The notes below the pieces were generated by a model that saw only the letters and a list, made by a program, of their open reading frames with translations, searched no databases and was not told the origin of the DNA. 64,000 nt of DNA, taken from positions 805 through 64,804 of the forward strand of contig PLZW01000038.1 of the NCBI GenBank assembly GCA_003153575.1. Direction: 5' to 3'. Source of the DNA: Acidimicrobiaceae bacterium. GTDB taxonomy: Bacteria; Actinomycetota; Acidimicrobiia; Acidimicrobiales; RAAP-2. This document shows positions 20,127 through 42,734 of this stretch, piece after piece. The position numbers and the translations under genes are program-made. Position 1 is the first letter of the stretch. Each line of letters begins with the position of its first letter.

Positions 20127-21178
20127 CGCAGGGCCCTCCCGGTCAGGTGGATGAACACGTCCTCCAGGTTGGGCTCGCCGAGCCGGGCGTCCGTGAGGCT
20201 GCCGCCGGCGGCGCTGACGGCCTGGGCCACCGGAGCAACGTAACCGGCGGGCTCGCCCTCCACGTAGATCCGCAGTCGCCAGGCACCCGTGACCGGATCG
20301 TCCAGCCGCTCGGTCTCCCGGACGCCGGGAAGGGCGCCGATGGTTGCGGCCAGCGCGCCGGCATCGGTGGTCGGCCCGGGATCGACCGCGCAGTCGAGGG
20401 TGCGTTCACTGGCCATGCCGCGCACCAGGGCGGCGGGCGTGTCGAGGGCGAGGAGCGTGCCGTGGTCGATGATGGCCACTCGGTCGCTCAAGGTGGCCGC
20501 CTCGTCCATGTCGTGGGTGGTGATCACCACCGTCGTGCCGGCCTGCTGTAGTTCCGCCACCTTCTCCCACAAGAAGAGCCGGGCCGCCGGGTCGAGTCCG
20601 GTCGACGGCTCGTCGAGGAACAACACGGACGGTGCGTGCATCAGGGCCCGGGCGATCATCATCCGCTGGATCTGACCGCCCGAGAAGTCGTCGGGCCGCC
20701 CGTCGGGCCGGTCGGCCAGGCCGAACTGGTCGAGCAGGGCATCGGCCAGGCGGATGCGTTCCGCCCGGGGGACGCCGTGATAGCTGGCGTGGAACAGGAG
20801 GTTCTGGCGCACCGAGAGCGATCGGTCGAGATTGTTCTGCTGGGGGACCACGCCGAGCACGCGGCGGGCCCCCACCGGATCGGCCACCACGTCGACCCCG
20901 GCCACGATGGCCCGGCCCCGGGTGGGTCGGATGCGGGTGGTGAGGATTCCGATGGTCGTCGACTTGCCGGCGCCGTTCGGGCCGAGAAAGCCGAATACCT
21001 CGCCCTGTCGGACCTGGAAGCTGACACCGGCCAGGGAATCGACAGCCGACTTGGGGTAGCGCTTGGCCAGTCCGTCGACCTCGACGGCGGGCGCCCGGCC
21101 GTCGCCCGGTGGCTGCACCGTCAGGGCGGCGCCCGTCGTCTCGTGCGGTCCTCCGTGCATTCCCCCGTGACTCCTCAC
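20123..21178 (-). CDS. ABC transporter ATP-binding protein (DrrA-like, with an extra C-terminal domain)
   Basis: Walker A GPNGAGKST, signature FSGGQIQR, Walker B VLFLDEPSTGLD. ATG 21160 is an alternative start. Confidence 0.92.
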   Translation of the reverse strand: MRSHGGMHGGPHETTGAALTVQPPGDGRAPAVEVDGLAKRYPKSAVDSLAGVSFQVRQGEVFGFLGPNGAGKSTTIGILTTRIRPTRGRAIVAGVDVVADPVGARRVLGVVPQQNNLDRSLSVRQNLLFHASYHGVPRAERIRLADALLDQFGLADRPDGRPDDFSGGQIQRMMIARALMHAPSVLFLDEPSTGLDPAARLFLWEKVAELQQAGTTVVITTHDMDEAATLSDRVAIIDHGTLLALDTPAALVRGMASERTLDCAVDPGPTTDAGALAATIGALPGVRETERLDDPVTGAWRLRIYVEGEPAGYVAPVAQAVSAAGGSLTDARLGEPNLEDVFIHLTGRALR

Positions 21179-21393
21179 TGCTCGTGGGCGTGCCGGGACC
21201 GGCTCTCGGGACGCCCGACATGTCCCCGTTCGGGGCCGACGATACGGTACGGGGGCACGCCCGGCGTCGACCGCTCACAGCGACGTCAGAACGCGGGCCC
21301 ATCGGGGGAGGTGGAGGTGGTGGACAGCACCGTGGCGGACACCGCCGGCGCCGTGTCGCCCCGCCCCTGTTTGCCGAGCGCCGGGGGAGCCGG

Positions 21394-22935
21394 GTGAGCC
21401 GGGTGTCACGGTGGAATCCGGCGGCGGCGGTGGCCGGATCGTGGGGGCACTTCCGGCGACGTCCCCGTGGCACCCAGATCCGGACGGTGGTGATGGTGGG
21501 AGCAGTCCTGATCGGGACCTCGGTGTGGGTGGCCTCGGCGCCGACGAGCGCCTCGCCTCCGAGCGCCACGGGAGCGGGCAACCCGAACGGCTCCGCCGGT
21601 GCCGGGCCCGGTGCCGGACCGGTTCCGGTCGAGCGGGCGAGCACGTCCTCGCGCGGGGTGTCCGCCACCGCCATCAACGTGGTCTTCCCGGTGGTCGCCC
21701 TCAACTCCCTGGCCGGCAAGTTGGGCTTCGCCCAGGATGTCGAGTACGGGCAACAGGCCGAGGCCATCAACCTCTATGTGAACCAGATCAACCGGTCAGG
21801 CGGGATCAACGGTCGGCGGATCGATCCCATCATCACGTCCTACGACCCGGCCAGCGAGTCGGGCATGCGCGCCTTGTGCAAGACCTGGACCGAGGGTTCG
21901 CCGGCCGCCTTCGCGGTGGTCGACGGCCTCGGGGCGTGGACCGGTGACAACCAGCTCTGCGTCACCCAGGAGGGTCAGACCCCCTTCCTCGGGGAGTGGA
22001 CGACGGTCACCAACTGGACCGACCAGGGCTCCCCGTACCTGTGGTGGACCGGTCCCGACCAGTCCGCCATCCTCCGGGCCGTCGTCAGCTGGGGGCTCAG
22101 CGCCCACCTCCTCGGACACGGGCGCACGGTGGGGATCATCGCCGGAGACCGGGCCTCGGACCAGGCCGCCCTCAACGACGCCCTCCTGCCCGCACTGGCC
22201 AAGGCGGGCGTGCACCCGGTGGTCGAGACCATCGCCTCTGATCCGTCGGCCACCGCCACCACCGACAGCCAGGCACCGCTGATCGTCCAGCAGTTCCGGA
22301 GCGCCGGGGTCGACTCGGTCATCCCGCTGATACCGTTCAACGCCTTCTTCCCGGTCCTCCAGGCCGAGAGTGACCAGCACTACTTCCCCCGGCTCCTCCT
22401 CAGCGACTACGAGTCGAGCATCGAGTCGTCCCTCGGGCTGCTCCCGATCCCCTACGCCAAGGCCCTCAACGGGCAACAGGGGGTCACCACCGAGACCCTG
22501 GGCGGGATCGACGACGACCGGCCCCAGAGCCAAGGCGGCTACGACCCCGGACTGCGGAGCTGTTGGACGCCGTGGCACGCGGCGTACCCCCAGATCCCTC
22601 CCGGGACCCTGTCCTTCTACATCGAGGAACAGGGACCGATCGCCCTGTGGTGCCAGGCCATCCGCCTGTTCGCCGCCGCCGCCCGGGCGGCAGGACCCGA
22701 TCTCAACCGGCGCACGTTCGTGACGGCCATGTCCCACGTGACCGGGTTCCCCGGGACGAACAGCCCGGTACTGAGCTACGGGCCGGACAAGCGGTTCGGT
22801 CCGACCAGCTACCAGGTGGTCCGACTGCACATCAACTCGCCGCTGTCGACCCAGTGCGCCTTGCCCAAGAACCGCATTCCCCAGGTGACCTGCTGGGTGC
22901 AGGTGCAGCCGTTTACCCCTCTGCCCCCTCCGTGA
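21394..22935 (+). CDS. Secreted ABC substrate-binding protein, Leu/Ile/Val-binding (type 1 PBP) family, orphan
   Basis: ORF 21109..22935 trimmed to GTG 21394 (GGGGGAG SD 4 nt upstream). It has a signal peptide (RRRPRGTQIRTVVMVGAVLIGTSVWVASA), a low-complexity linker, then AINLYVNQINRSGGINGRRIDPIITSYD. Confidence 0.8.
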   Translation: MSRVSRWNPAAAVAGSWGHFRRRPRGTQIRTVVMVGAVLIGTSVWVASAPTSASPPSATGAGNPNGSAGAGPGAGPVPVERASTSSRGVSATAINVVFPVVALNSLAGKLGFAQDVEYGQQAEAINLYVNQINRSGGINGRRIDPIITSYDPASESGMRALCKTWTEGSPAAFAVVDGLGAWTGDNQLCVTQEGQTPFLGEWTTVTNWTDQGSPYLWWTGPDQSAILRAVVSWGLSAHLLGHGRTVGIIAGDRASDQAALNDALLPALAKAGVHPVVETIASDPSATATTDSQAPLIVQQFRSAGVDSVIPLIPFNAFFPVLQAESDQHYFPRLLLSDYESSIESSLGLLPIPYAKALNGQQGVTTETLGGIDDDRPQSQGGYDPGLRSCWTPWHAAYPQIPPGTLSFYIEEQGPIALWCQAIRLFAAAARAAGPDLNRRTFVTAMSHVTGFPGTNSPVLSYGPDKRFGPTSYQVVRLHINSPLSTQCALPKNRIPQVTCWVQVQPFTPLPPP

Positions 22936-29110: not shown

Positions 29111-29210
29111 GGTGAAAGGGCTGAGGTGCAGTGAAGAGGGGAGCCGGGGCCCGCGGCAGCGGGGCCGGTCGGGGGCCGCGGTGCCATACTGAGCCGATGC
29201 GCCGGACCGG

Positions 29211-30728: not shown

Positions 30729-30817
30729 CGCGCCACCCGGCGCCCGGGAGGGGTGCTGGGTAGAGTGCTCGGCATGACCGTGCACGTTGTCCGGACACCG
30801 CGGGGCAGCTGAACGCC

Positions 30818-32167
30818 GTGCAGATCACCATCGTCGGGGGCGGCAGCTACCAGTGGACGCCGGAGTTGCTCGCCGACCTGTTGGGCACCGAGTCCCTGCG
30901 AGGCGCGCGCGTGGTCCTGGAGGACGTCGATCCGGCACCGTTGACCAAGATGGAGGCGCTGGGTCGCAAACTCGACGAGGCCATGGGGTCGGGGTGCAGC
31001 ATCGTCACCACCACCGACCAGCGTCGGGCGCTCGAGGGCGCCGACTTCGTGATCGTGACCATCTCCACCGGGGGCTTCGACTCCATGGAGGTCGACATCG
31101 ACGTGCCCGCCCGCTACGGCATCCGTCAGTCGGTGGGGGACACGGTGGGCCCGGGTGGGATCAACCGCTCGCTGCGCAACGTCCCGGTGCTGGTGGGGCT
31201 GGCCCGCGACATGGCCGAGGTGTGCCCCGACGCCTGGATGCTCAACATCACCAATCCGATGACCTGCCTGACCCGGGCCGTGTGCCGGGAGACGCCGGTC
31301 CGGGCGGTCGGTCTGTGCCACGAGGTCGGCAACTGGACGATGGACCTGGCCATCGCCCGGGGTCGACCGGCCGAGTCCGTACGGGCCACCGTGGCCGGGG
31401 TCAACCACCTGCCGATCGTCACCGAGCTGACCGTCGACGGCGATGACGGGTTCGCCATCCTCGAGGAGATGGTGGCCGAGGCCGGTGGACTGGACGCCCT
31501 GGCCGACCGGGAGGGCCAGGCAGAGGCCGAGCCCTTCTCCCATCTCGACTTCGTCCGCCGCCACGTCCTCGCGCTCACGTTCCTGGACCGGTTCGGCGCG
31601 CTACCGGCCGCCGGCGACCGCCACGTCGCCGAGTTCGTGCCCTGGGCGCTTACCGAGTCGTCCGCCTGGGGCGCGGCGTACAACGTCGAGCTGACGCCCA
31701 TGTCCGACCGGCGTGCCCACCAGGCCGGGTACATCGCCGATGTCGACGCCTGGGTGGCCGGGACGAAGGACCTCCAGACCTGGGCCTCGGGGGAGCTGCC
31801 CGCCCTGGTCATCGACTCGCTCGTGACCGGTACGCCCCGCGAGCTGCCGGTCAACATCCCCAATGCCGGCCAGGTGCCGGACGTGCCCGACGACGCGGTG
31901 GTCGAGTCGATCTGTGTGGTCGACGAGAAGGGGATCCGCGGACGCGACCGGGCCGTCCTGCCGGCCGCGTTGGCCGAGCTGGTCCGTCGGCACGCGGCGG
32001 TCACCGAGCTGACGTTGGATGCCGCCCTGTCCGGGGACCCGGGACTGGCCTCTTCGGCCTTCCTGCTCGACCCGTTGGCCGGACGCGGGGACCTGCACCG
32101 GACCGAGGCGATGGCCACCGAGCTCCGGGTCGGCACCGCCAGGTGGCTGCCGCAGTTCGCCGCATGA
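30818..32167 (+). CDS. GH4 family NAD/Mn-dependent glycosidase
   Basis: GTG start giving VQITIVGGGSYQW. Motifs: NITNPM, GLCHEV. Confidence 0.88.
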   Translation: MQITIVGGGSYQWTPELLADLLGTESLRGARVVLEDVDPAPLTKMEALGRKLDEAMGSGCSIVTTTDQRRALEGADFVIVTISTGGFDSMEVDIDVPARYGIRQSVGDTVGPGGINRSLRNVPVLVGLARDMAEVCPDAWMLNITNPMTCLTRAVCRETPVRAVGLCHEVGNWTMDLAIARGRPAESVRATVAGVNHLPIVTELTVDGDDGFAILEEMVAEAGGLDALADREGQAEAEPFSHLDFVRRHVLALTFLDRFGALPAAGDRHVAEFVPWALTESSAWGAAYNVELTPMSDRRAHQAGYIADVDAWVAGTKDLQTWASGELPALVIDSLVTGTPRELPVNIPNAGQVPDVPDDAVVESICVVDEKGIRGRDRAVLPAALAELVRRHAAVTELTLDAALSGDPGLASSAFLLDPLAGRGDLHRTEAMATELRVGTARWLPQFAA

Positions 32168-32196
32168 CGCCGGCTGCCGCTCCGGGAGAGGACTCC

Positions 32197-33105
32197 ATGC
32201 GACTCGGCTTCATCGGGCTCGGGGCCATGGGCCTCCCCATGACTCGGCACCTGCTCGAGGCCGGTCACCAGGTGACAGTGGCCTCGCGCAGCCGGGGGCC
32301 GATCGACCGGGCCGTCTCGCTCGGGGCGACCGAGGGTGCTGGGCCGGCCGCCGTGGCCGGTGGCGCCGATGTCGTCTTCCTCTGTGTGCCCAGCTCCCCG
32401 CAGGTGGCCGAGGTGGTGACCGCCATGCTCCCCGACCTCGGTCCGGGCAAGGTCGTGGTCGACTGCTCCACCATCGATCCCGAGGTGGAACGTCGCCAGC
32501 ACGACCTGGTGACGGCCACCGGAGCCGGATTCCTCGAGGCACCGCTGTCCGGAGGCACGGCCGGGGCCGAGGCGGGCACGCTCACCTTGATGGTCGGAGG
32601 CGACGAGGTGACCCTCGAGCAGGTCCGACCGGCCATGGACCCCTTCGCCGGACGGATCATCCATGTCGGCGGGCCGGGCATGGGCCAGGTAGTCAAGCTC
32701 TGCAACAACCTGATCTACGCCGCGCAGATGCTGGCCACCGCCGAGGCCACCGCCCTGGCCGTCAAATCCGGGGTCGACCCGGGCAAGCTCCACGAGGTGC
32801 TGTCCAACGCCACCGGCGACTGCGTGGCCGTGCGCACCCGGCTCCCGGTACCCGGGGTGCTCCCGGCCAGCCCCGCCTCCAACGGCTGGCAGCCGGGATT
32901 CATGACCGACCTGATGGCAAAGGACCTCGACCTGGCCCTGGCCTACGGGGTGGACGTCGGGGTGCCCCTCGCCTCGACGGCGGTCGCCCGTCAGGTGCTC
33001 ACCGCGGCGTCGGTGGCGGGGTACGGCCGGGAGGACTTCTCGTCGCTGGCCAAGGTGGTCTTCGCCCTCTCGGGTATCGCCGGGAACGGCGGGGGGGAGG
33101 GGTGA
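32197..33105 (+). CDS. NAD(P)-dependent 3-hydroxyisobutyrate/tartronate-semialdehyde reductase-like dehydrogenase
   Basis: ORF 32143..33105. ATG 32197 has a GGGAG SD 8 nt upstream and gives MRLGFIGLGAMG. ATG 32164 (ATGA overlap with GH4) is an alternative start. Confidence 0.88.
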   Translation: MRLGFIGLGAMGLPMTRHLLEAGHQVTVASRSRGPIDRAVSLGATEGAGPAAVAGGADVVFLCVPSSPQVAEVVTAMLPDLGPGKVVVDCSTIDPEVERRQHDLVTATGAGFLEAPLSGGTAGAEAGTLTLMVGGDEVTLEQVRPAMDPFAGRIIHVGGPGMGQVVKLCNNLIYAAQMLATAEATALAVKSGVDPGKLHEVLSNATGDCVAVRTRLPVPGVLPASPASNGWQPGFMTDLMAKDLDLALAYGVDVGVPLASTAVARQVLTAASVAGYGREDFSSLAKVVFALSGIAGNGGGEG

Positions 33106-33884
33106 CGGGCCCCGGTCCGCCGCCGGCTCCGGCCGGCCTCGTGCCGCCGTCGATCATCCTGGCGGCCGACCACCGCGCCCGCGGGGTGGCCACCATCGAG
33201 CGGTACGCCGACTACCTGGCCGCGGTCTCGGCGGCACTGGCGCACTGCGACGGAGTCCTGGCCACCGCCCAGCCCCTGGGCGACCTGGCCGCGGCCGGGG
33301 CCATCGGCCCGGGACAGCGCACGTATCTGTCGCTCAACCGGACCGGGCTGGCCGGCTCGGCCTTCGAACTCGACGACCGGCTGGTGGCCAGTGTCGAGCG
33401 GGCCGCCCGCGACGGGTGGACCGGGGTCAAGTTGATGACCCGGATCGCCACCGACGACCCCGGAGGGGCGGCCGCCCTCGAACTGCTCGGCCGGGTCCTC
33501 GAAGAAGCTCGGGCCGTCGGCCTCGAGGCACTGGTCGAGCCGGTCCGGTGGCGGGACGGGACCATGTCCCGGGCGACCGACGACGTGGTCCTCGCCGCCG
33601 TCATCGCCCACGACCTCGGCGCCCCGTTGCTCAAGGTGCCCGTGCCCGATGCCGTCCCCGGGACGGCGCGGGCGGAGGCGGTCCGGCGCGTGGTGGACAG
33701 CGTGGGCGTCCCGGTCCTCTTCCTCGGCGGGCCGCGCCGGGACGCGACCGGGGACGCCGCGTCGTTGGCCCACGACGTCATGGACGGCGGTGGTGCCGGC
33801 CTGGCCGTCGGACGGTTGGTGATCGAGGACCCGGACCCGGCCGGTATGGCCGAACGTCTCGCCGCCGTCGTCCACGACCGGTGA
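33102..33884 (+). CDS. Class I aldolase-type TIM-barrel protein (DeoC/FbaB-like; possibly the Cgl0159-like family)
   Basis: Tail of ORF 32019..33884 starting at GTG 33102 (GTGA overlap, GGGGGGGAGGG SD). Motifs: IILAADHRARG, GVKLMTRI, LVEP, LKVPVP. Confidence 0.65.
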   Translation: MTGPGPPPAPAGLVPPSIILAADHRARGVATIERYADYLAAVSAALAHCDGVLATAQPLGDLAAAGAIGPGQRTYLSLNRTGLAGSAFELDDRLVASVERAARDGWTGVKLMTRIATDDPGGAAALELLGRVLEEARAVGLEALVEPVRWRDGTMSRATDDVVLAAVIAHDLGAPLLKVPVPDAVPGTARAEAVRRVVDSVGVPVLFLGGPRRDATGDAASLAHDVMDGGGAGLAVGRLVIEDPDPAGMAERLAAVVHDR

Positions 33885-35353
33885 TCCTCACCTTCGACCT
33901 CGGCACCACCGTCACCAAGGCGGCGTTGTGGGATCGGAACGGGATGGTCGGCCTGGCCGAGATCGGCATCGTGACCGACCATCCGGCACCCGGGTGGGCG
34001 GAGCAGGACCCGACGCAGTGGTGGGCGTCCACGGTCGAGGCGTGCGGCCGGCTGGCCGGCGAGACGTCGCAAGGGCTCGACAGGGTCACGGCCATCGGGT
34101 GCACCGGGGCCCGCCAGACCTTCGGCCTGTTCGACGCCGGCGGCGGGCCGCTCGGACCCGGCATCCTGTGGGCGGATCGACGGGACCTCGGCGACGCCGG
34201 CGGGGGTCCATCGAGGTGGCTCGACGACGTCGACGACGCATCGGGAACCCCTCCCGACGGCGGTTCGGTGCCGGCCAAACTGGCGTGGACGGCACGCCAC
34301 CGGCCGACCGACTGGGAGCGCACCGCCTGGGTCCTCGCTCCCCGCGACCTCGTCGTGTGGCGCCTGACCGGCCGGCCGGTCACCGATCCCACCCTGGCCT
34401 CGTGCTCGGGCCTCTACGACGCCGACGGACAGATTGCCGGGTCTCACGAGCACATGGCCGACCGGCTCCCGGCGGTGGTGCCTTCGGGTGAGGTGACCGG
34501 TGAACTCGGTCGGGAGGCGGCGGATGCGCTCGGGCTCGGAAGCGGCCTCCCGGTGGTGGTCGGCGCCGGCGACCGGGCCTGCGAAGTCCTCGGGACCGGG
34601 GCGACGCCGACGGGACCCATGGTCAGCTGGGGTACGACAGCCAACGTCTCACTGCCCATCGAGGATCCTCCGCCCGGTCGGGGGCACCTGGTCGTCACCC
34701 GGGCGGCCGACGGGGGGTGGCTGCTCGAGGGCGGGCTCTCGGGGGCGGGCTCGTTGCTGGCCTGGCTGGGCACGGTGTGCGGGCACTCGCCGGCCGAGCT
34801 CGCCACCCTGGCCGCGGCGTGCCCTCCCGGCGCCCGCGGTGTCACCGCCGCCCCCTGGATGGACGGAGCCCGGGCCCCCTGGTGGCGACCAGACGCCGCC
34901 GCCGCCTTCGTCGGCCTGAGCGGCGCCCACGGCCCCACCGAGTTGGCCCGGGCCGTCTTCGAGGCGGTGGCCCGGGACGTGGTCCGCTGCTTGGCGGTGG
35001 CGGGGGAGTGCCGACCCTCCGTCCCTCCGCCCGCGGTACTCCACCTGGCCGGTGCCGGTGCATCGGCACCGGTCTGGCAGGACGTGCTGTCCGGGATCTC
35101 CGGTCTCCCCGTCGACCGGCGTCGCTCGGGCCAGGCGGCCTCCGCCGGTGCCGCCCTCCTGACTGCGGGCGCGGTCGGCGACGGGTGGGATCTGGACCGG
35201 CTCGACCCGGTGGTGGAGCGGTCGACACCCGATCCCGCCATCGTCGAGCAGTACGACAGGCTTCGCGACGGTGCCGACCACGTGGCGGCCACCCTGGTCG
35301 AGCTGGGGACTGCCGGACCGGTGGGATCGACGGGACCGTCGACGTGTTGGTGA
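33881..35353 (+). CDS. FGGY family carbohydrate kinase
   Basis: Tail of ORF 33416..35353 starting at GTG 33881 (GTGA overlap). Motifs: ILTFDLGTTVTKAALWD, HPAPGWAEQDP. Confidence 0.85.
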   Translation: MILTFDLGTTVTKAALWDRNGMVGLAEIGIVTDHPAPGWAEQDPTQWWASTVEACGRLAGETSQGLDRVTAIGCTGARQTFGLFDAGGGPLGPGILWADRRDLGDAGGGPSRWLDDVDDASGTPPDGGSVPAKLAWTARHRPTDWERTAWVLAPRDLVVWRLTGRPVTDPTLASCSGLYDADGQIAGSHEHMADRLPAVVPSGEVTGELGREAADALGLGSGLPVVVGAGDRACEVLGTGATPTGPMVSWGTTANVSLPIEDPPPGRGHLVVTRAADGGWLLEGGLSGAGSLLAWLGTVCGHSPAELATLAAACPPGARGVTAAPWMDGARAPWWRPDAAAAFVGLSGAHGPTELARAVFEAVARDVVRCLAVAGECRPSVPPPAVLHLAGAGASAPVWQDVLSGISGLPVDRRRSGQAASAGAALLTAGAVGDGWDLDRLDPVVERSTPDPAIVEQYDRLRDGADHVAATLVELGTAGPVGSTGPSTCW

Positions 35354-36597
35354 CGTTGGCCTACGGCGCCGACGGACTGTCGATCGACGTGCCGGACGAC
35401 GCCGTGGTGGTGAACGGTGAGGAAGCGCCTCCGCTGCAGGACGAGGCGGAAGCCATCCGCCGGGCGCTGGCCGCACCGTTGTCCGGACCGGCCCTGGCGG
35501 ACCTGGTGGGGAAAGGGGAGACCGTGGCCGTGGTCTTCCCCGACCTGACCCGGCCGATGCCCAACACCACGGTGCTACCGCCCCTGCTGGCCGAGCTCGC
35601 ACGGCTGGGCGCCGGTCCCGATCGGGTGGAGCTGCTGTGCGCCACCGGGACGCACCGCCAGGCCACACCGGAGGAACTGTCGAACCTGCTCGGCCCGGAC
35701 CTCGTTAGCCGCTACCGGATCCACGACCACCGGGCCGACGACGACGACCACGTCGACGTCGGAGCGGTCGACGGTGCCCGCATCCTGCTCGACCGTCGCT
35801 ACCTGGCCGCCGACGTGCGGATCGTGACCGGCTTCGTCGAGCCGCACTTCTTCGCCGGGTGGAGCGGGGGACCGAAAGCGGTGTGCCCCGGGCTGGCGGC
35901 CACCTCGACCATCCTCGAGGCGCACAGCCCGGCCCGGATCGCCGACCCCGCCGCCACGTGGCTCACCACCGCGGGCAACCCGGTCCACGAGTTCGTCACC
36001 CGGGCGACCGCACTCTGCCCGCCGGACCTCGCCGTCGACGTCACCCTCGACCGTCGGCGCGGCCTGACCGGCGTGTTCGTGGGAGCGCTCCCGGACGGGC
36101 ACCGCGAGGCCTGCGCCTTCGCCGAACGCACGGTCACCACCGTGGTCGATGGTCCCTTCGAGGTGGTGGTCACCACCAACGGCGGCTACCCGTTGGACCG
36201 CAACCTCTACCAGGCGGTCAAGGGCCTGGCCGCGGCCGAACGGGTGGTGGCCGGTGGCGGGACGATCATCCTGGCCGCCGCCTGCCTGGACGGTGTCCCC
36301 GACGGGGGCGCCTTCGCCGGGCTTCTCGCCGGTGCCACCGACGCCGCCTCCCTGGCCCGACCCGGCGGTCCCGCCCGGGTCGATGGTTGGCAGGCCCAGG
36401 TGCTGGGCCGGGTCCTCGAGCGGGCCGAGGTCTGGGTCCGGTCGGACGGGGTGACCGACGACGAGGTCCGGACGGCGCTCATGAACCCGGTGGACGACGT
36501 GTCCGCCGCGGTCCGACAGGCCCTGGACCGCCACGGGCCGGGGGCCCGGGTGTGCGTACTGCCCCGCGGCCCGCTGGCGGTGGCCTCCCTCCTTTAG
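35350..36597 (+). CDS. LarA (nickel-pincer cofactor-dependent 2-hydroxyacid racemase/epimerase) family protein
   Basis: Tail of ORF 34717..36597 starting at GTG 35350 (GTGA overlap; GTG 35344 is an alternative). Motifs: FPDLTRP, CATGTHR, VEPHFFAGWSGGPK-x15-H. The spacing H102/H166/K176/H192 matches H108/H174/K184/H200 of lactate racemase. Confidence 0.85.
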   Translation: MTLAYGADGLSIDVPDDAVVVNGEEAPPLQDEAEAIRRALAAPLSGPALADLVGKGETVAVVFPDLTRPMPNTTVLPPLLAELARLGAGPDRVELLCATGTHRQATPEELSNLLGPDLVSRYRIHDHRADDDDHVDVGAVDGARILLDRRYLAADVRIVTGFVEPHFFAGWSGGPKAVCPGLAATSTILEAHSPARIADPAATWLTTAGNPVHEFVTRATALCPPDLAVDVTLDRRRGLTGVFVGALPDGHREACAFAERTVTTVVDGPFEVVVTTNGGYPLDRNLYQAVKGLAAAERVVAGGGTIILAAACLDGVPDGGAFAGLLAGATDAASLARPGGPARVDGWQAQVLGRVLERAEVWVRSDGVTDDEVRTALMNPVDDVSAAVRQALDRHGPGARVCVLPRGPLAVASLL

Positions 36598-36686
36598 ACG
36601 GTGGAACCGGCGTGGGGCCGACCCGCCGGAGGCCGCGGACCGTCACCGGTGCCCGCCGGACCGCCCGAGGATAGGGTTGCCGTCCA

Positions 36687-38891
36687 ATGGCCGACCAGGT
36701 GCGGTTCGACTTCGCGGTTCCCGACGAGCTGTTGTCCGAGGTCGTAGCTAAAGGCCGCCATAGCGAGGCCATCGCCGACCTGGCCGTGATGCCCGGCACG
36801 GGCGAGGGCAAGCCCCCGCCGCTGGCCGGGATCCTCCGTCAGTACGGGTACGCACCCCTGGCGTTGCTGACGGCTGCGGCCATCGTCCCCAACACGTTCG
36901 GCAACGGGATCTCGCTCATCGGCAACAACCTCGAGCACTCGTTCCACATCCACGATGCGGCGTTGGGTGCCCTCACCTTCGCAGCCGCCGTAGCGCAGCT
37001 GTTGTGGGCGGTGCCGCTCGCCTTGTGGGCGGACCGGGGGAGCCGCAAGGTGGTGGCCGGGGTGGCCCTCCTGATCTTCTCCGTGGTCGCGCCGTTGATG
37101 GCGCTCGCCACCAACGTGTGGACGTTCACGTTCTTGTACCTGATCGCCTCGGTGGGATTCAACGTGAGCGAGACCGTCCACAACTCGTACCTGTCCGACG
37201 CCTATCCGATGGAGGGGCGCGGACGGATCTTCAGTTGGCACAACCTCTCGGATCCACTGTCCCTCACCATCGGCATCCTGATCTTCGGACTGGTGGTGAC
37301 CGTCGGGCACAGCTGGCGGTGGGGCATGCTGATCCCCCTGGCCGGGATCCCCATCGCCCTGGCGGTGTTCACGCTGCGCGAGCCGGACAAGGGCCAGAAC
37401 GAATCGAGCCACATCTTGAAGGCGTCGGGGATGGACCTCCACAGCCAGCAGGAGGAGGCCCCCCGGGTGCTGCTCGGATCGGCGGTCACCCGCCTGCTCC
37501 GTATCCGCTCGATCTACTACGAACTGGCCGCAGTGGCCATCCTGGGGTTCGCCGGCACCGGCGGACCCCTGTTCGGCAACCTCTACTTCGTCCGTCGGTG
37601 GGGGCTCGACACCGCCCAGAGGAGCGAGGTCTACGCCATCATCGGGCTGGCCGCGTTCGTCGGCCTCCCGGTCGCCTACGTGCTCGGGGACCGCATGTTC
37701 CGTCGGGCTCCGGAGCGGCCGCTCGTGATCGCCGCGGGGTGCATCACGGCCTACGGCGTGCTGTTCGTCACCTCGCTCTACATGCCCCAGCTGTGGATGG
37801 TCGTCACCCTCCAGCTGCTGGCCAGTGCGGCCATCTCGCCGTTGGCCATCTGCATCTTCCTCACCCTCGCCGCCACGGCCCCGGCCGAGATGCGGACCAT
37901 CTGCTTCGCCATGTTCGGCGTCTACGCCCTCGTGTTCGGCGGCTTCGCCGGTGGCGTCCTGCTCGGCGCGGTCAGCGACGCGGCCGGCTACCTCCACGGC
38001 CCCACCGTCGCCCTCACGCTGATCGGACCGGTCTGCGTGGTCGGCGGGATCATGCTCCTCCTCGGGTCGCGGCACGTGAAGCGCGACATCACGATGGTCA
38101 TCGAGGATGTTCTGGAGCGCCACGCCGAGGGACAGCGCCGCCAGGCCGGGCATGCCGTGCCCGCCCTGCAGGTCCACAACCTCGACGTCTTCTACGGCGA
38201 CAACCAGGTCCTGTTCGACGTCGACTTCGAAGTCGCCCCCGGTGAGATCGTGGCCCTGCTCGGCACCAACGGCGCCGGCAAGTCCACCCTGCTCCGGACG
38301 GTGGCCGGGCTGCAGCACCCGCACCGCGGGGTGATCCGCATCGCGGGGGTCACGTGCACCTACCTCGAACCCGAGCAGATCATCGACCGGGGCGTGGCCC
38401 TCCTGTTGGGCGGGAAGATGACCTTCCCCGGGCTGACCGTGCAGGAGAACCTCCATATCGGTGCGTACTCCATGCGCCGAGACCGTGCCCGGTCAGGAGG
38501 GGCGGTGGCCGAAGCGCTCGATCGCTTTCCGGAGCTGGCGGCCAAGCTCCGCCAACCGGCCGGCACCCTCTCGGGCGGGGAGCAGCAGATGCTGGCCCTG
38601 GCCCGGGTCATGATCACCGGTCCCGACCTGCTCCTGATCGACGAACTGGCATTGGGCCTGGCCCCGATGGCGGTCGACCGGTTGACGGACCTGATCCGCG
38701 AGGTCAACGGGGCGGGCACCACGGTCGTCCTGGTGGAACAGAGCGTCAACCGGGCCATGACCCTGGCCCGCCGGGCCGTCTTCCTCGAACGGGGCGAGGT
38801 CCGCTTCGACGGCTCCATCGACGGCCTCCTCGAACGGCCCGACCTGTTGCGACCGGTCTTCCTCGGTGCGGCGACGGACGGCCTCGGGTAG
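36687..38891 (+). CDS. Fusion protein: N-terminal 12-TM MFS-like domain plus C-terminal LivF-type ABC ATPase
   Basis: A single 734-codon ORF. It has twelve hydrophobic segments with a central hydrophilic loop, then Walker A GTNGAGKST, signature LSGGEQQML, and Walker B LLLIDELALGL. Confidence 0.85.
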   Translation: MADQVRFDFAVPDELLSEVVAKGRHSEAIADLAVMPGTGEGKPPPLAGILRQYGYAPLALLTAAAIVPNTFGNGISLIGNNLEHSFHIHDAALGALTFAAAVAQLLWAVPLALWADRGSRKVVAGVALLIFSVVAPLMALATNVWTFTFLYLIASVGFNVSETVHNSYLSDAYPMEGRGRIFSWHNLSDPLSLTIGILIFGLVVTVGHSWRWGMLIPLAGIPIALAVFTLREPDKGQNESSHILKASGMDLHSQQEEAPRVLLGSAVTRLLRIRSIYYELAAVAILGFAGTGGPLFGNLYFVRRWGLDTAQRSEVYAIIGLAAFVGLPVAYVLGDRMFRRAPERPLVIAAGCITAYGVLFVTSLYMPQLWMVVTLQLLASAAISPLAICIFLTLAATAPAEMRTICFAMFGVYALVFGGFAGGVLLGAVSDAAGYLHGPTVALTLIGPVCVVGGIMLLLGSRHVKRDITMVIEDVLERHAEGQRRQAGHAVPALQVHNLDVFYGDNQVLFDVDFEVAPGEIVALLGTNGAGKSTLLRTVAGLQHPHRGVIRIAGVTCTYLEPEQIIDRGVALLLGGKMTFPGLTVQENLHIGAYSMRRDRARSGGAVAEALDRFPELAAKLRQPAGTLSGGEQQMLALARVMITGPDLLLIDELALGLAPMAVDRLTDLIREVNGAGTTVVLVEQSVNRAMTLARRAVFLERGEVRFDGSIDGLLERPDLLRPVFLGAATDGLG

Positions 38892-38897
38892 GCGACG

Positions 38898-40889
38898 GTG
38901 TCGATCCCCGGATTCGTCCTGGTCCAAGGGGCGGTCACCGGCCTGATCTATGGGCTGCTGGCCATGGGCCTGGTGCTCATCTACCGGTCCAACCGGGTGC
39001 TCAACTTCGCCCAGGGCCAACTCGGGGTGGTGGCGGCCGTCTTCCTGGTCAAGTGCTACTACGACTTCGGGTTCAACTACTGGTTCGCCCTGGCCCTGGC
39101 CCTGGCCCTGGCCGTCGCCATGGGGTCATTGAGCGAGCTGCTGCTCCGACGGCTGTCCACCCGACCCCGGGTCCTGGTCATGGTGGCCACCATCGGGCTC
39201 AGTCAGGTCCTCTTCGTCTTCACCGCCCTGCCGTTCATCCGGCCCAAGAGCCTCTTCCGGGCCTTTCCCGTCCCGATCGACCTCAGCTTCCACGTGGGGA
39301 CGTACCTGTTCACGCCGGGAGAGGCCCTGGCTCTCATCGCCGCACCGTTGGTGGCGCTGGGCCTGGTGGCCTTCGTGCGGTGGTCGCCGTGGGGCCTGGC
39401 CATGCGGGCCACCACCGAGAACAGCGATTCGGCCCGCCTCTCGGGGGTGTGGGTCCGGCGCACGTCGAATGTGGCCTGGATGCTGGCCGGCCTGCTCTCG
39501 GCCTTCACGGCCATCCTGGCCGCACCGGGCCAGACGTCGTCGCTGACCGAGGTGCTCAATCCCGAGCTGCTGCTGTTGGCCCTGACCGCGGCCATGGTCG
39601 GGGCCATGGTGAACCTGACCACGGCCTTCATAGCGGCCATCGGCGTGGGCGTGATCCAGGAGATCCTGGTGTGGAACCTCCACAGCACTGCCCAGGTCGA
39701 CCTGGTCCTCTTCCTGATGGTGTCGGCGGTGCTGCTGGTGCGGATCGCCGCCCTGCAGTTCGGCGGGGGCGGCGACGCCACCATCGCCTGGCCGGAGGAG
39801 TCCCGGGCCGCCGTGCGCGTACCCGATGCCCTGCGGCGACGGGTCTCTTCGACCGGTGTCGTCGCCACGGTGGTGGTGGTGGCCCTGTTGCCACTGGTGA
39901 TCAGCACCGGGCGGTCGTTCCTGCTCTCCCAGATCTGCATCTACGCCATGGTCGCCCTGTCGCTGACGGTGCTCACCGGATGGGCCGGCCAAGTGTCGCT
40001 CGGGCAGTTCGGGCTGGTGGCCTGCGGTGCGCTGGTGGCCACCCATCTCGGCTCCAGCGTTCCGCTGGTCCTGCTCCTCCCTTTCGCCGGTGCCGTCACC
40101 GCGGTGATCGCCGTGGTGATCGGCCTGCCCGCTCTCCGGGTGCGCGGGCTCTATCTGGCCGTCAGCACCCTGGCCTTCAGCCTGTGGTTCATGCAGTCGG
40201 TGCTCGCCACCCCGTGCTGGACCGCCCCCGTGGTGGGCCGGCTGCTGTGCACGGGCCTGCCCAACCCGGAGTCGACGTTGCTGGCCCGGCCCAGCTTCCT
40301 CGGGTTGAGCCTCCAGTCGGAGCGGGCCTTCGCCTGGTTCTCGCTGGCCGTCCTGGTGGCCACCATCCTGATGGTCCAGATGTGGCGTGACCGCGGCGTG
40401 GCCCGTCGGTTGATCGCCGTCCGGGACAACGAGATCGGGGCGGCCGCCATGGGGGTGCCCGTGGCCCGGACCAAGTTGCTGGCGTTCGCCCTCTCGGGGT
40501 TCATCGCCGGATACGCCGGCGTCTGCCTGGCATTCGCCACCCAACGGATCTCGACGGCCACCTTCGATCCCACCCTCTCCATCCTGGCCGTCTCGATGGT
40601 GGTCATCGGCGGGCTGGGCTCGGTCAGCGGGGCCGTCCTGGGCGCGCTCTACCTGGTCGGACTGCCCGCCCTGGCCGGCACCACGCCGACCATCCAGTTC
40701 CTGACCAGTGGCCTCGGACTCCTGGTGTTCATCCTCTACCTGCCCGGCGGTCTGGCCGAGCTGCTGCACCGGTTCGGCGATCTGGTGACCGATGGCATCC
40801 GGAACCTCCGGAGCGAACGGCATCCGGGCTCCGGTGGCGACACTGCCGGTGCCGGGGACGTACCGGTGGCCGGGGGCGTCACCGGATGA
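38898..40889 (+). CDS. Fused LivH-LivM type branched-chain amino acid ABC permease
   Basis: 663 aa with a GTG start. It has two permease halves (LNFAQGQLGVVAAVF... and GQVSLGQFGLVACGA...). Confidence 0.88.
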   Translation: MSIPGFVLVQGAVTGLIYGLLAMGLVLIYRSNRVLNFAQGQLGVVAAVFLVKCYYDFGFNYWFALALALALAVAMGSLSELLLRRLSTRPRVLVMVATIGLSQVLFVFTALPFIRPKSLFRAFPVPIDLSFHVGTYLFTPGEALALIAAPLVALGLVAFVRWSPWGLAMRATTENSDSARLSGVWVRRTSNVAWMLAGLLSAFTAILAAPGQTSSLTEVLNPELLLLALTAAMVGAMVNLTTAFIAAIGVGVIQEILVWNLHSTAQVDLVLFLMVSAVLLVRIAALQFGGGGDATIAWPEESRAAVRVPDALRRRVSSTGVVATVVVVALLPLVISTGRSFLLSQICIYAMVALSLTVLTGWAGQVSLGQFGLVACGALVATHLGSSVPLVLLLPFAGAVTAVIAVVIGLPALRVRGLYLAVSTLAFSLWFMQSVLATPCWTAPVVGRLLCTGLPNPESTLLARPSFLGLSLQSERAFAWFSLAVLVATILMVQMWRDRGVARRLIAVRDNEIGAAAMGVPVARTKLLAFALSGFIAGYAGVCLAFATQRISTATFDPTLSILAVSMVVIGGLGSVSGAVLGALYLVGLPALAGTTPTIQFLTSGLGLLVFILYLPGGLAELLHRFGDLVTDGIRNLRSERHPGSGGDTAGAGDVPVAGGVTG

Positions 40890-41794
40890 GCGACCCGGAT
40901 CCGCACACGGCGTCCGCAGGGCCGGCCCATCTGGACGTGACCGGCGTGTCGGTCCGCTTCGGCGGGGTCGAGGCGCTCGACGGGGTCGACCTGGTGGCCG
41001 AGCCCGGGTCGATCGTGGGCCTCATCGGACCCAACGGGTCCGGCAAGACCACGTTGCTCAACGTGATCTCGGGTCTCGTCCATCCGAGCCACGGCTCCGT
41101 CCGACTCGACGGCGAGGCGCTCGATGGCTACCTGCCCGAGGAGCGGGCCGGCGTCGGTGTGATCCGGTCGTTCCAGGACTGCCGCCTCTTCCCGGACCTC
41201 TCGGTCCGTGACGTCCTGTTGGTGGCCCTCGACGCGCACCGCCCGGTGGGGGTGGCGGCCTCCACCCTCCAGATGCCTTGGGCCCGACGGTCCGAGCGGG
41301 AGAAGCGCTCCGACGTCGAGCGGGTGATCGAGTCCTTCCGGATCGGGCCGTTCCGGCACCACCGGATCTCCCAGCTGTCGACCGGCACCCGGCGGGTGGT
41401 CGACCTGGCCTCCATCGTCCTCGCCCGGCCCCGCCTGCTGCTGCTCGACGAGCCGACAGCCGGCATCGCCCAACGCGAGGCGGAAGCCTTCGGCCCGTTG
41501 CTGTCCCGTCTCCGCGACGTGGCCGACACCACCATCGTCCTGGTCGAACACGACGTCCCGCTGGTCTTCGCCCTGTGCACCCAGGTGGTCATGGTGGCGT
41601 CGGGGCGGGTGGTGTCCTCGGGCACGCCGGACGAGGTGGCGGCCGATCCCCGTGCGGTGGCCGCCTATCTGGGGGCCAGCGAGTCAGCCCTGGCCGTGTC
41701 GGGCGCCCGGCCCGGGGTCGGGTCAGTCCCGGGCGGGCATGGCCGGGCCGAAGGGGACGTCCCCGCACAAGGTGACCCGGTGGGCGATGCGTAA
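40886..41794 (+). CDS. LivG-type ABC ATPase
   Basis: ATGA overlap with the permease gene. Motifs: Walker A GPNGSGKTT, LSTGTRR, Walker B LLLLDEPTAGI, and a family-typical AAYLG near the end followed by a ~35-aa tail. Confidence 0.88.
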   Translation: MSDPDPHTASAGPAHLDVTGVSVRFGGVEALDGVDLVAEPGSIVGLIGPNGSGKTTLLNVISGLVHPSHGSVRLDGEALDGYLPEERAGVGVIRSFQDCRLFPDLSVRDVLLVALDAHRPVGVAASTLQMPWARRSEREKRSDVERVIESFRIGPFRHHRISQLSTGTRRVVDLASIVLARPRLLLLDEPTAGIAQREAEAFGPLLSRLRDVADTTIVLVEHDVPLVFALCTQVVMVASGRVVSSGTPDEVAADPRAVAAYLGASESALAVSGARPGVGSVPGGHGRAEGDVPAQGDPVGDA

Positions 41795-42583
41795 CTCGTC
41801 GCCGTAGTCGTCGAGGGCGTAGTGGAGCGTGGCCCGGTTGTCCCAGAAGGCCACCGAACCCGGCCGCCACCGGAAGCGGCAGGTGAGCTCCGGCTGTTGG
41901 CAGTGGCGGTACAGCATGGCGAGGATGGCGTCGCTCTCGTTGGTGGAGCACCCGAGGATGGTTTTGGTGAACTGGGGGTTCACGAACAGACCCTTCCGAC
42001 CGTTCTCGGGATGGGTGCGGACCACCGGGTGGATGGCGGGCAGCAACTTGTCGATGTGCACCCCCATCCATTCGAAGCCGCCCCGCTCGTCGACGTCGGC
42101 CGCGAACCAGGGGTCGTGGTGGACGGCGATCAAGGTGTCGCACATGGCGCGGACCGGCTCGGCCAGTCGGTCGTAGGCGTCCTGGAGGCTGGCCCACGTG
42201 GTGTCGCCCCCGACCTCGGGACAGGTGGCCATGTAGAGGATCGAGCCCATGGGCGGCGTCTGCAGGAAGGTCACGTCGGTGTGCCACCAGTTGGCCCGGT
42301 CGTCGCGGCCGTCGATGGCCAGCACCTCGGGTGCGCCCTCGAGGGCGGGGATGACCGGGTGACCCTCGGTGGGCGTGCCGAACTGCCGGGCGAAGTCGGC
42401 CTGTTGGGTCGGGGAGAGCTCCTGGTCGCGGAAGAAGACGACGTGGTGGGCGTTGAGCGCGGCCCGGACCTGGCCGATGGCCAGGTCGCTCAAGGGGCGT
42501 GACAGGTCGAGGCCGAAGAGCTCGGCGCCGATCAGGGGCGAGAGGGGCCGTACCTCCACCTCCTGCCCGACCGTGTCCGTCAC
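41723..42583 (-). CDS. TauD/TfdA family Fe(II)/2-oxoglutarate dioxygenase
   Basis: 286 aa. Motifs: WHTDVTF (HxD), WDNRATLH, RVTLCGDVP. Confidence 0.92.
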   Translation of the reverse strand: MTDTVGQEVEVRPLSPLIGAELFGLDLSRPLSDLAIGQVRAALNAHHVVFFRDQELSPTQQADFARQFGTPTEGHPVIPALEGAPEVLAIDGRDDRANWWHTDVTFLQTPPMGSILYMATCPEVGGDTTWASLQDAYDRLAEPVRAMCDTLIAVHHDPWFAADVDERGGFEWMGVHIDKLLPAIHPVVRTHPENGRKGLFVNPQFTKTILGCSTNESDAILAMLYRHCQQPELTCRFRWRPGSVAFWDNRATLHYALDDYGDELRIAHRVTLCGDVPFGPAMPARD

Positions 42584-42734
42584 AGTGCCAAGTGTGCCCC
42601 ACCGGGAACGGTGTCACAACCGGTCACAGTGGGCCGTTCTCACACCGCACCGTTGTGGCAGCGTAGGAGGGTGCCGCCGGGTTCGGACGGGGACACGATC
42701 CGGATTTGCCGCACGACCAGGAGGACGACCGACC

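Follow-up and report, generated by a model that had tools for sequence, protein, structure and literature searches.

The LarA-family gene considered here lies in a 64,000-nucleotide stretch of DNA, termed the window in the following, that covers positions 805 to 64,804 of contig PLZW01000038.1 in a metagenome-assembled genome (MAG) of the Acidimicrobiales (assembly GCA_003153575.1). It closes a cassette of four genes, the other three of which encode a beta-hydroxyacid dehydrogenase (gene DH), a class I aldolase-fold enzyme (gene ALD) and an FGGY-family carbohydrate kinase (gene KIN). With this cassette, a nickel-pincer racemase of the lactate racemase (LAR) type is found in a new genomic setting that is well conserved and probably marks an undescribed catabolic module for acid sugars, the chemistry of which we infer. 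Tentatively, we regard the LarA protein as a racemase dependent on nickel-pincer nucleotide (NPN) as its cofactor. Its substrate would be a small 2-hydroxy acid, glycerate being the likeliest and lactate a fallback, and its reaction would be the final, stereochemical step of the pathway encoded by a conserved catabolic operon in Acidimicrobiales from peat and soil. The MAG comprises 2.98 Mb in 43 contigs and is 76.29% complete; the window is located within its contig C18 (G000 denotes the source genome, G with another number other genomes, L with a number fetched loci and C with a number contigs). At least half of the sampled words of the stretch were contained in 15 DNA sequencing runs from 12 studies, and 14 of these 15 runs are peat metagenomes.

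With regard to gene arrangement, third-position GC content follows four successive genes on the forward strand over positions 32197-36597, all four translations are open and the three gene junctions consist of GTGA overlaps (33102-33105, 33881-33884 and 35350-35353), in complete agreement with the original prediction, which had described a chain of this kind from the letters of the stretch. The arrangement recurs beyond the window. Among 80 loci fetched with the LarA protein from species-representative genomes, in which gene content was determined by tblastn with the window proteins, DH, ALD, KIN and the LarA gene are colinear on one strand in 32, nearly all of them from Acidimicrobiales; a further five contain the set in part or with frameshifts, and the remaining 43 have no such set. 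The four-gene arrangement is not a product of chance. Start and stop codons overlap by 4 nt at the DH/ALD junction in 24 of 30 loci and at the ALD/KIN junction in 30 of 32, and the LarA gene starts between -10 and +13 nt from the end of the kinase gene in 19 of 30 loci. A gene for a glycosidase of family GH4 precedes the cassette in 31 of the 32 loci, and genes for an MFS-LivF fusion, a fused permease and a LivG ATPase each follow it in 31 of 32 as well, with the importer beginning 29-122 nt after LarA in 26 of the 27 loci measured. The conserved unit is larger than four genes and comprises GH4-DH-ALD-KIN-LarA-importer (Table 1). The genes for GH1 and GH78 (rhamnosidase) that also neighbour the cassette in the window are each found in just two of the 32 cassette loci; of the proposal that the cassette processes products of adjacent glycosidases, the part concerning GH4 stands and the part concerning GH1 and GH78 does not.

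Table 1. Coordinates of the cassette genes and of associated genes in the window (scores written a/b give bits and model cut-off from Pfam and NCBIfam profile searches, here and in the text)
Feature	Position	Strand	Evidence or remark
GH4 NAD-dependent glycosidase, alpha-galactosidase/alpha-galacturonidase branch	30818..32167	+	first conserved gene of the block
Beta-hydroxyacid dehydrogenase (DH), HIBADH/tartronate-semialdehyde-reductase type	32197..33105	+	NAD_binding_2 150 bits, NAD_binding_11 105 bits
Class I (Schiff-base) aldolase-fold enzyme (ALD), divergent Cgl0159-like/DhnA-type	33102..33884	+	PF22649 93.3/27; DeoC/LacD (PF01791) 44.5/23.8
FGGY-family carbohydrate kinase (KIN), xylulokinase-like	33881..35353	+	FGGY_N 125.3 bits, FGGY_C 74.4 bits
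LarA-family NPN-dependent 2-hydroxyacid racemase (predicted), lactate-racemase-type pocket	35350..36597	+	Lar_N + LarA_C; 415 aa
MFS domain fused to LivF-type ABC ATPase	36687..38891	+	MFS_1 90 bits, ABC_tran 97.6 bits; first importer gene
Fused LivH/LivM-type permease	38898..40889	+	BPD_transp_2 196.7 bits, two stretches
LivG-type ABC ATPase	40886..41794	+	ABC_tran 108.8 bits, BCA_ABC_TP_C 33.6 bits, LivG 198 bits
TauD-family 2-oxoglutarate dioxygenase, convergent with the importer	41723..42613	-	TauD 220.9 bits; taurine dioxygenase 273.1/313
Peripla_BP_6 solute-binding protein	21025..22935	+	Peripla_BP_6 72 bits

Metatranscriptome contigs of 150-430 nt match parts of GH4, DH, ALD, KIN and LarA with 93-99% identity (four libraries from three studies), and one RNA contig of 218 nt covers the GH4/DH junction (32025-32243). 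These contigs do no more than hint at transcription of the block, and stretches of the window that lack RNA contig cover carry no meaning. A scan of positions 29000-43000 for terminators and promoters returned nothing exceeding shuffled expectation.

Both domains of the LarA homologue are found above their Pfam cut-offs (Lar_N 181.8 bits, LarA_C 100.6 bits). Among NCBIfam models the best match is Ni_dep_LarA (NF033504) with 394.8/460, i.e., below the equivalog cut-off. The two malate racemase models are likewise missed (323/500 and 268.9/462), and scores drop to 55.2/740 for the LarAH14/15/16 model and to 30.2/500 for the hexonate epimerase model. The closest solved relative is a broad-spectrum LarA (PDB 9eia, 275 bits over residues 2-410), and 5huq follows with 204 bits. 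In public records the orthologues bear the name "nickel-dependent lactate racemase". Residues were mapped with HMMER alignments to 9eia, 2yjg and 5huq and with a MAFFT alignment of the window protein and 71 relatives, which omits nine of the 80 loci where the best match was shorter than 380 residues due to frameshifts or contig ends. The enzymes from Lactiplantibacillus plantarum (5huq) and Isosphaera pallida (9eia) are abbreviated as LarA_Lp and LarA_Ip, respectively. H102 and H166 of the window protein correspond to the catalytic residues H108 and H174 of LarA_Lp, K176 to the thioamide tether K184 and H192 to the nickel ligand H200, while D65 and R68 are equivalent to D72 and R75. The carboxylate and the 2-hydroxyl group of the substrate are bound by Y294, Q295 and K298 in LarA_Lp, which are represented by Y287, Q288 and K291, and the wall of the pocket for the C-alpha substituent (F175, F176, W358 and T359) is formed by F167, F168, W347 and Q348. 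The roles of Lys184, His200 and Arg75 are taken from the survey of Urdiain-Arraiza et al. (PMC11770544) and further roles from Gatreddi et al. (bioRxiv 10.1101/2024.11.28.625916). The catalytic histidines, the carboxylate and 2-hydroxyl binders and the NPN residues also align with LarA_Ip. In all 72 rows of the alignment both catalytic histidines are kept, and the pocket reads F,F,W,Q/E throughout, save for four rows with M, L or I in the first position. Judged by its residues, the window protein is a complete LarA-family protein, and the numbering H102/H166/K176/H192 as well as the presence of every NPN residue had been given correctly in the original prediction.

Pocket composition separates the groups of this superfamily. 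LARs usually feature F,F,W,E/Q at the four positions and gluconate epimerases E,V,A,H, while malate racemases (MARs) are characterized by H/Q at position 358 and K at position 359 in LarA_Lp numbering (Urdiain-Arraiza et al., PMC11770544). The window protein has W and Q instead of the MAR residues. LarAH43, which also carries Q in the last pocket position, converts glycerate with 1.14e5 M-1 s-1 as compared to 8.3e4 M-1 s-1 for lactate (PMC11770544). In crystal structures all four pocket positions touch the substituent, and the pair of Phe residues in LarA_Lp is reported to render the pocket smaller and more rigid (Gatreddi et al., bioRxiv 10.1101/2024.11.28.625916). On the basis of these contacts and the rigid Phe pair, the window LarA is therefore expected to act on a very small 2-hydroxy acid and not on a hexonate. 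With LarA_Lp, LarA_Ip (also termed SAR) and LarAH43 from Enterocloster asparagiformis, which represent the LAR group, it shares the two-domain fold (Pfam), the catalytic, NPN, carboxylate and 2-hydroxyl residues and the F,F,W,Q pocket. It differs from them in its score (394.8 vs. an equivalog cut-off of 460), in its location in an operon with glycosidase, kinase, aldolase and dehydrogenase genes instead of beside larBCE or a lactate permease gene, and in its host, which belongs to an aerobic-type soil and peat lineage of the Acidimicrobiales.

Phylogenetic analysis (a quick maximum-likelihood tree of the 72 rows with SH-aLRT support) placed all 29 cassette LarA rows within a single actinobacterial clade of 35 rows with an SH-aLRT value of 100, and the other 37 rows, stemming from Chloroflexota, Acidobacteriota and Planctomycetota, on the opposite side of the tree. 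Six rows in the clade come from loci without the cassette. One of these is a contig of only 2.9 kb (L050), in two the LarA gene sits at a contig end (L049 and L055) and two have unrelated neighbours (L039 and L069). In the sixth, L059, which is basal, genes for a CCG iron-sulfur oxidoreductase and an L-lactate permease are situated directly upstream of LarA on the same strand. Characterised LarA homologues (LarAHs) were compared by way of NCBIfam scores, PDB alignments and pocket residues. Since catalytic and pocket residues are alike across the rows, the cassette LarA looks like a LAR-type enzyme that was recruited without obvious remodelling of its site. Orthologues with 66-74% identity occur in 13 of the 24 other genomes of the genus, and several of them are split by frameshifts. 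In five congeners with long contigs the orthologue is broken into two to seven frame-shifted pieces (G020:C4:1191299-1192540, G001:C5, G010:C2, G012:C1 and G017:C7), which may reflect either indel errors of the assemblies or real pseudogenes.

The source genome holds a second LarA homologue of 529 aa on the reverse strand of contig C29 of G000 (21166-22755; L006:592-2181). Scoring 898.3/740, it qualifies as a full LarAH14/15/16 family member; NCBIfam names this family "NPN-dependent hydroxyacid isomerase". The gene next to it on the upstream side encodes a Zn-dependent dehydrogenase similar to scyllo-inosose 3-dehydrogenase (IolM) and to L-idonate 5-dehydrogenase. In those genomes of the genus that do not contain the cassette, a LarAH14/15/16-type homologue is the sole LarA match.

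Among the three partner enzymes, neither the dehydrogenase nor the kinase reaches the cut-off of a substrate-specific model that was compared. For the dehydrogenase the HIBADH model (269.7/291.6) and the tartronate semialdehyde reductase model (201.5/340.75) rank ahead of those for L-threonate dehydrogenase (157.7/350) and sulfolactaldehyde reductase (134.8/348), and the best-matching solved relatives are of the HIBADH and L-serine dehydrogenase types; PDB 1vpd is matched with 161.5 bits. Its SGG motif (S118, G119 and G120), which is of the type for carboxylate substrates, the catalytic lysine K167 and residue N170 are invariant in 35 of 35 orthologues. The kinase matches XylB best (207.1/380.25; 153.6 bits to PDB 2itm, XylB), ahead of GlpK (110.9/590) and FGGY gluconokinase (109.5/648), and stays below every substrate-specific equivalog cut-off searched, i.e., those for xylulo-, glycerol-, glucono-, ribulo- and fuculokinase and for AI-2 kinase. 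D6 and D231, which we take to be its catalytic aspartates, are invariant in 29 of 29 orthologues. The aldolase matches the solved proteins 3fok (Cgl0159) and MJ0400 with 67 and 43 bits, respectively. Its K178 aligns with the Schiff-base lysine K193 of YihT and its R238 with the phosphate-binding R253 of the same enzyme (residue roles in PMC8006165); both residues and a GG motif are invariant in 32 of 32 orthologues. For aldolase and kinase, the ESM Atlas yielded family-level names only.

Relatives of the aldolase provide an analogy for the chemistry of the cassette. In a search of 401 Actinomycetota genomes, 14 contained a match at E ≤ 1e-15, with 36-40% identity apart from the source genome's own copy, and in the eight loci fetched from this search neither dehydrogenase, kinase nor LarA was encoded near the aldolase relative. 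Full Cgl0159-family genes, which score 413 bits on PF22649, overlap or abut a gene for a PfkB kinase and are flanked by genes of the IolB, IolD, IolG or IolE type in three of three loci (L108:8010-8894, L113 and L115 from the Actinomycetota genomes G193, G096 and G423); they occupy the position of IolJ. The IolJ reaction yields dihydroxyacetone phosphate (DHAP) and malonate semialdehyde. By analogy, the kinase-aldolase pair of the window probably performs the equivalent of the IolC/IolJ step on a related keto acid-sugar. In common with the myo-inositol step of Actinomycetota, which involves a PfkB kinase and a Cgl0159-family aldolase (3fok), the window has a kinase gene translationally coupled to a Cgl0159-like aldolase gene, whose product is a distant relative of the full family members, and the expected shared chemistry is conversion of a phosphorylated 5-keto acid-sugar into DHAP and a C3 acid semialdehyde. 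The two systems differ in that the window kinase belongs to the FGGY and not to the PfkB family and in that the window aldolase scores 93 bits on PF22649 vs. 413 for the members from iol clusters. Moreover, the block does not encode IolB, IolD, IolE or IolG, window profile scans having found no iol genes within it, and the semialdehyde would be reduced by the HIBADH-like enzyme and not oxidised by IolA. The Cgl0159 family itself appears to be without a curated function despite its IolJ position.

Beside the observed gene families, residues, pocket type, gene order and cofactor genes of relatives, we infer all substrates and the order of reactions for the following route. A Liv-type ABC system would bring in a glycoside, which would then be opened by the GH4 enzyme. 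This enzyme (Glyco_hydro_4 177.7 bits, Glyco_hydro_4C 111.8 bits; PRK15076 alpha-galactosidase 329.9/486) fits an anionic sugar because its nearest solved relative is the alpha-galacturonidase LplD from Bacillus subtilis (3fef, 218 bits). The FGGY kinase would phosphorylate a keto acid-sugar at the primary hydroxyl adjoining its keto group; 5-keto-hexonates such as tagaturonate, fructuronate or 5-ketogluconate are candidate substrates. The Schiff-base aldolase would cleave the product to DHAP and tartronate semialdehyde following the logic of IolC and IolJ in inositol catabolism. The HIBADH-like dehydrogenase would reduce tartronate semialdehyde to glycerate, yielding the L isomer in the case of a keto acid that stems from a D-uronate, and LarA would convert L-glycerate into D-glycerate, the form used by glycerate kinase. 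Glycerate is favoured since no other common acid is at once a 2-hydroxy acid, as LarA demands, and a 3-hydroxy acid, as is apt for a beta-hydroxyacid dehydrogenase. Were the hydroxyl at C2 L-configured in the keto acid, L-glycerate would result and a racemase would be needed ahead of glycerate kinase. A glycerate kinase of the Gly_kinase family is encoded in five of five genomes checked, including the source genome. That the steps from FGGY kinase and IolJ-like aldolase via L-glycerate to LarA as a dedicated glycerate racemase make up one undescribed route for a glycoside-borne keto acid-sugar is possible, and in this fully specified form doubtful.

Several points speak against this proposal. 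Conversion of an aldose or uronate into a keto acid requires an isomerase, which the block does not encode. The uronate isomerase UxaC (PF02614) was found in none of five genomes, four of which are cassette-bearing relatives, in a search that matched seven of 14 known genomes as a control. The uronate version of the model is therefore without an entry step, and a uronate isomerase route linking the LplD-like GH4 to a keto-uronate was discarded as a candidate. Tartronate semialdehyde racemises readily, which lessens the need for a racemase, and HIBADH enzymes can accept L-glycerate; the stereochemical argument for a racemase rests partly on such general background, which is a weak point. Xylulokinase phosphorylates a hydroxyl distant from the keto group, which makes phosphorylation next to the keto group less certain for the xylulokinase-like KIN product. 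The aldolase is 34-40% identical to the family from iol clusters, and the function of that family is itself deduced from gene position; no NCBIfam model names full Cgl0159-family proteins, and the Corynebacterium glutamicum member cg0198 is termed conserved hypothetical in a published paper. Typical tartronate semialdehyde reductases prefer D-glycerate (PMC3031564). The RNA libraries might hold DNA carry-over, and the RNA contigs might derive from close relatives. Because the nearest non-cassette relative of LarA occurs in a lactate context, lactate is also possible as the substrate.

The supply of the cofactor has evidence on both sides. As stated in the original prediction, the window lacks larB, larC and larE according to profile searches. 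In addition, LarC (PF01969), LarE (TIGR00268) and LarB (NF033503) all remained below cut-off in the source assembly, which is 76.29% complete, and this counts against the proposal. In its favour, 24 of 24 other genomes of the genus contain larC, as do 36 of the 41 genomes searched when the source genome is counted as a miss, and both larB and larE exceed their cut-offs in five of five relatives checked. Their distance from larC is about 8 kb or less in G023, G002 and G015 and about 20 kb or less in G041 and G042. Contig C31 of the source assembly (17.7 kb; 17,721 bases) is colinear with the 7 kb preceding the lar cluster of G023 and G002, where the order is larE-larC-larB, and its 3' end stops about 3 kb short of the expected larE. 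The single gene that separates the syntenic block from larE in these congeners has a homologue in the middle of contig C19, with no further synteny. We read the absence of the lar genes as an assembly gap, which is not proof of their presence. The end of C31 falls into a gene with a domain that is repeated many times across the genome, and this repetition likely caused the assembly break.

Among the other explanations, the simplest holds that LarA is a plain lactate racemase that happens to reside in the operon, using lactate that is imported or formed from DHAP via methylglyoxal and not acting on the product of the dehydrogenase. The pocket carries the LAR signature, Ni_dep_LarA is the top NCBIfam model, the orthologues are named accordingly, and L059 combines LarA with upstream genes for a CCG oxidoreductase and an L-lactate permease. 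Moreover, the 83 neighbours recorded for the 43 non-cassette homologues, which are a heterogeneous group (83 of 152 called open reading frames (ORFs), i.e., the ±1 neighbours plus four −2 neighbours) include three FAD-linked oxidases, two CCG proteins and one lactate permease in addition to ten M20 peptidases. The cassette itself points elsewhere: the family chemistry of the three partner enzymes neither makes nor uses lactate, beta-hydroxyacid dehydrogenases interconverting an alcohol and an aldehyde beta to a carboxylate, and the LarA score lies below the equivalog cut-off. Furthermore, the LarA gene closely follows the kinase gene, by a GTGA overlap in the window and with the spacing given above in relatives, and it is retained in the block in 32 of 32 loci, which argues for one pathway. 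We consider a plain lactate racemase unlikely.

Somewhat less probable still is a variant of the route for C4 acid sugars (L-threonate and D-erythronate), in which LarA would epimerise C2 so as to channel diastereomers into the route, the dehydrogenase would form a 3-oxo acid, the FGGY kinase would replace a DUF1537 kinase and the Schiff-base aldolase-fold enzyme, in place of a decarboxylase with the class II aldolase fold, would decarboxylate the phosphate of the beta-keto acid to DHAP. In this case the four genes would map one-to-one onto the known route, which has three or four steps catalysed by dehydrogenase, isomerase, kinase and decarboxylase (PMC12994016; PMC12540250), neither an isomerase for entry nor a leftover C3 fragment would have to be accounted for, and the dehydrogenase does match the L-threonate dehydrogenase model. 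At 157.7 bits, however, the latter match misses its cut-off of 350 and falls well short of the scores for the HIBADH model (269.7) and the tartronate semialdehyde reductase model (201.5). LAR-group enzymes epimerise 4-deoxy-threonate and 4-deoxy-erythronate and racemise 2,4-dihydroxybutyrate, but in F,F,W enzymes these activities are about a thousand-fold below those with glycerate or lactate (about 1e2 vs. 1e5 M-1 s-1; PMC11770544). No precedent was found for a decarboxylase role in this aldolase family, and GH4 would be left unexplained. Compared as a system, the established route (LtnD or Ltn3D, OtnI, OtnK and OtnC) resembles the cassette as a four-step module of dehydrogenase, converting enzyme, kinase and aldolase-fold enzyme that ends in DHAP (PMC12994016), and shares with it only the dehydrogenase family (LtnD), the kinase being FGGY vs. 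DUF1537 and the aldolase class I vs. class II.

The original prediction had placed LarA at the entry of the pathway as a C2 epimerase of C5 or C6 aldonates (gluconate, mannonate or rhamnonate type), after which the product would be phosphorylated and split by an aldolase and the resulting semialdehyde reduced. Sugar-type neighbours (GH4, FGGY kinase and aldolase) and the existence of characterised gluconate 2-epimerases in the superfamily (PMC7583248; PMC11770544) are compatible with such a role. The pocket reads F,F,W,Q and not E,V,A,H, its bulky Phe pair being reported to make the pocket small and rigid (bioRxiv 10.1101/2024.11.28.625916), and the hexonate epimerase and LarAH14/15/16 models are missed by a wide margin. 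The second LarA of the genome, as a LarAH14/15/16 member, fits a sugar-acid role better, and an aldonate offers no keto group to a Schiff-base aldolase, so that an oxidation step would be missing. Given the LAR pocket signature and the basal relative L059 behind a lactate permease, C2 epimerisation of hexonates is improbable, and this part of the earlier proposal is not upheld. A sulfoglycolysis-like pathway of the sulfo-EMP type, with GH4 as alpha-sulfoquinovosidase, the kinase, a class I aldolase releasing DHAP and sulfolactaldehyde, a YihU-like reductase and desulfonation by the TauD-type enzyme, is very improbable: the parallel with yihQ/V/T/U (PMC8006165), the taurine-dioxygenase-like gene (273.1/313) accompanying the importer in 19 of the 80 loci and the acceptance of anionic C6 sugars by GH4 enzymes (alpha-galacturonidase 3fef) are outweighed by a dehydrogenase that is 32% identical to YihU, has SGG in place of VGR and, though it keeps the Asn of the Asn174-Ser178 pocket, carries Y174 at the position of the sulfonate-binding S178 (pocket residues in PMC8006165), by an aldolase with merely 26 bits to YihT, by the lack of a sulfoquinovose isomerase, and by a LarA for which there would be no role and whose carboxylate binders are intact with no basic residue for a sulfonate side chain. 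The direct comparison with YihU and YihT from Escherichia coli, in which the sulfonate residue is not kept and aldolase likeness is marginal, led to rejection of this candidate. With the E. coli system (YihQ, YihS, YihV, YihT and YihU) the window shares every enzyme type but the isomerase, among them a class I aldolase with a HIBADH-family reductase acting after it, and it differs in having GH4 instead of GH31, FGGY instead of PfkB and a reductase without S178 of YihU.

The glycerate route that we prefer also has a counterpart in the lower pathway for D-glucarate and galactarate, which employs the aldolase GarL, the tartronate semialdehyde reductase GarR and the glycerate kinase GarK. Both would proceed from an aldolase via tartronate semialdehyde to glycerate by means of a beta-hydroxyacid dehydrogenase, as is illustrated by the scores of the window enzyme with the corresponding model (201.5 bits) and with PDB 1vpd (161.5 bits). 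The window route would, however, give DHAP and not pyruvate, involve another class of aldolase, place the kinase before cleavage and include a racemase as an extra step.

Beyond the four cassette genes, the MFS-LivF fusion contains a complete MFS domain and is conserved with 60-81% identity across 31 of the 32 cassette loci. The Peripla_BP_6 solute-binding protein, for which neither a solved relative nor an NCBIfam name was found, is the probable partner of the importer. Homologues with 53-65% identity occur in 22 of the 80 loci, on the forward strand and mostly either adjacent to the LivG gene on its downstream side or separated from it by a TauD gene. In the window its gene is found about 15 kb upstream, with genes for PhyH, GH13, ThuA, GH78 and GH1 in between, when compared with relatives L028-L065; this displacement suggests that an insertion or rearrangement split the locus. 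TauD homologues with 65-78% identity are usually convergent with the importer in the 19 loci that contain them, and a link of this gene to the pathway is uncertain. Clustering of ORFs from 29 cassette loci yielded neither an isomerase nor a regulator common to all, and a universal gene of either kind beside the block was dropped as a candidate. Scanned representatives of the clusters near the cassettes comprised a short-chain dehydrogenase/reductase (SDR), an NAD-dependent epimerase/dehydratase-family protein (12 loci), GNAT proteins and a thiolase. In one subclade of 12 loci, among them L038, L043, L044 and L052, the genes for the SDR and the epimerase/dehydratase-family protein are located upstream of GH4 on the same strand, and they might supply an oxidation or epimerisation step; neither protein is named specifically by NCBIfam.

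No description of the cassette was found in the literature searched, in which lactate racemase, FGGY kinase and aldolase never appear together and the term "glycerate racemase" is not used; Table S1 of PMC7583248, in which 25 LarAH groups were analysed for their gene contexts, and the tables and Fig. S7 of PMC11770544 lay outside this search. In PMC11796402, no match to terms for a kinase, an aldolase or gene context was found. Within the literature covered, the view that the route is not a described pathway holds.

LarA homologues are numerous, and according to the authors of the latest LarAH survey it is undetermined which role the newly found activities with glycerate and hydroxybutyrate play in vivo (PMC11770544). 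A conserved operon in which a LAR-type enzyme is encoded behind a kinase, an aldolase and a dehydrogenase offers a concrete and testable physiological context for such activities. It also advises caution with annotations, as the genes are named nickel-dependent lactate racemase though their context does not point to lactate. The cassette points to a possible new type of acid-sugar degradation in uncultured Acidimicrobiales. If the proposal is true, it would provide the first physiological role for the racemisation of glycerate, and likewise the first one outside lactate metabolism for a LAR-type LarA, in Acidimicrobiales that are abundant in peat.

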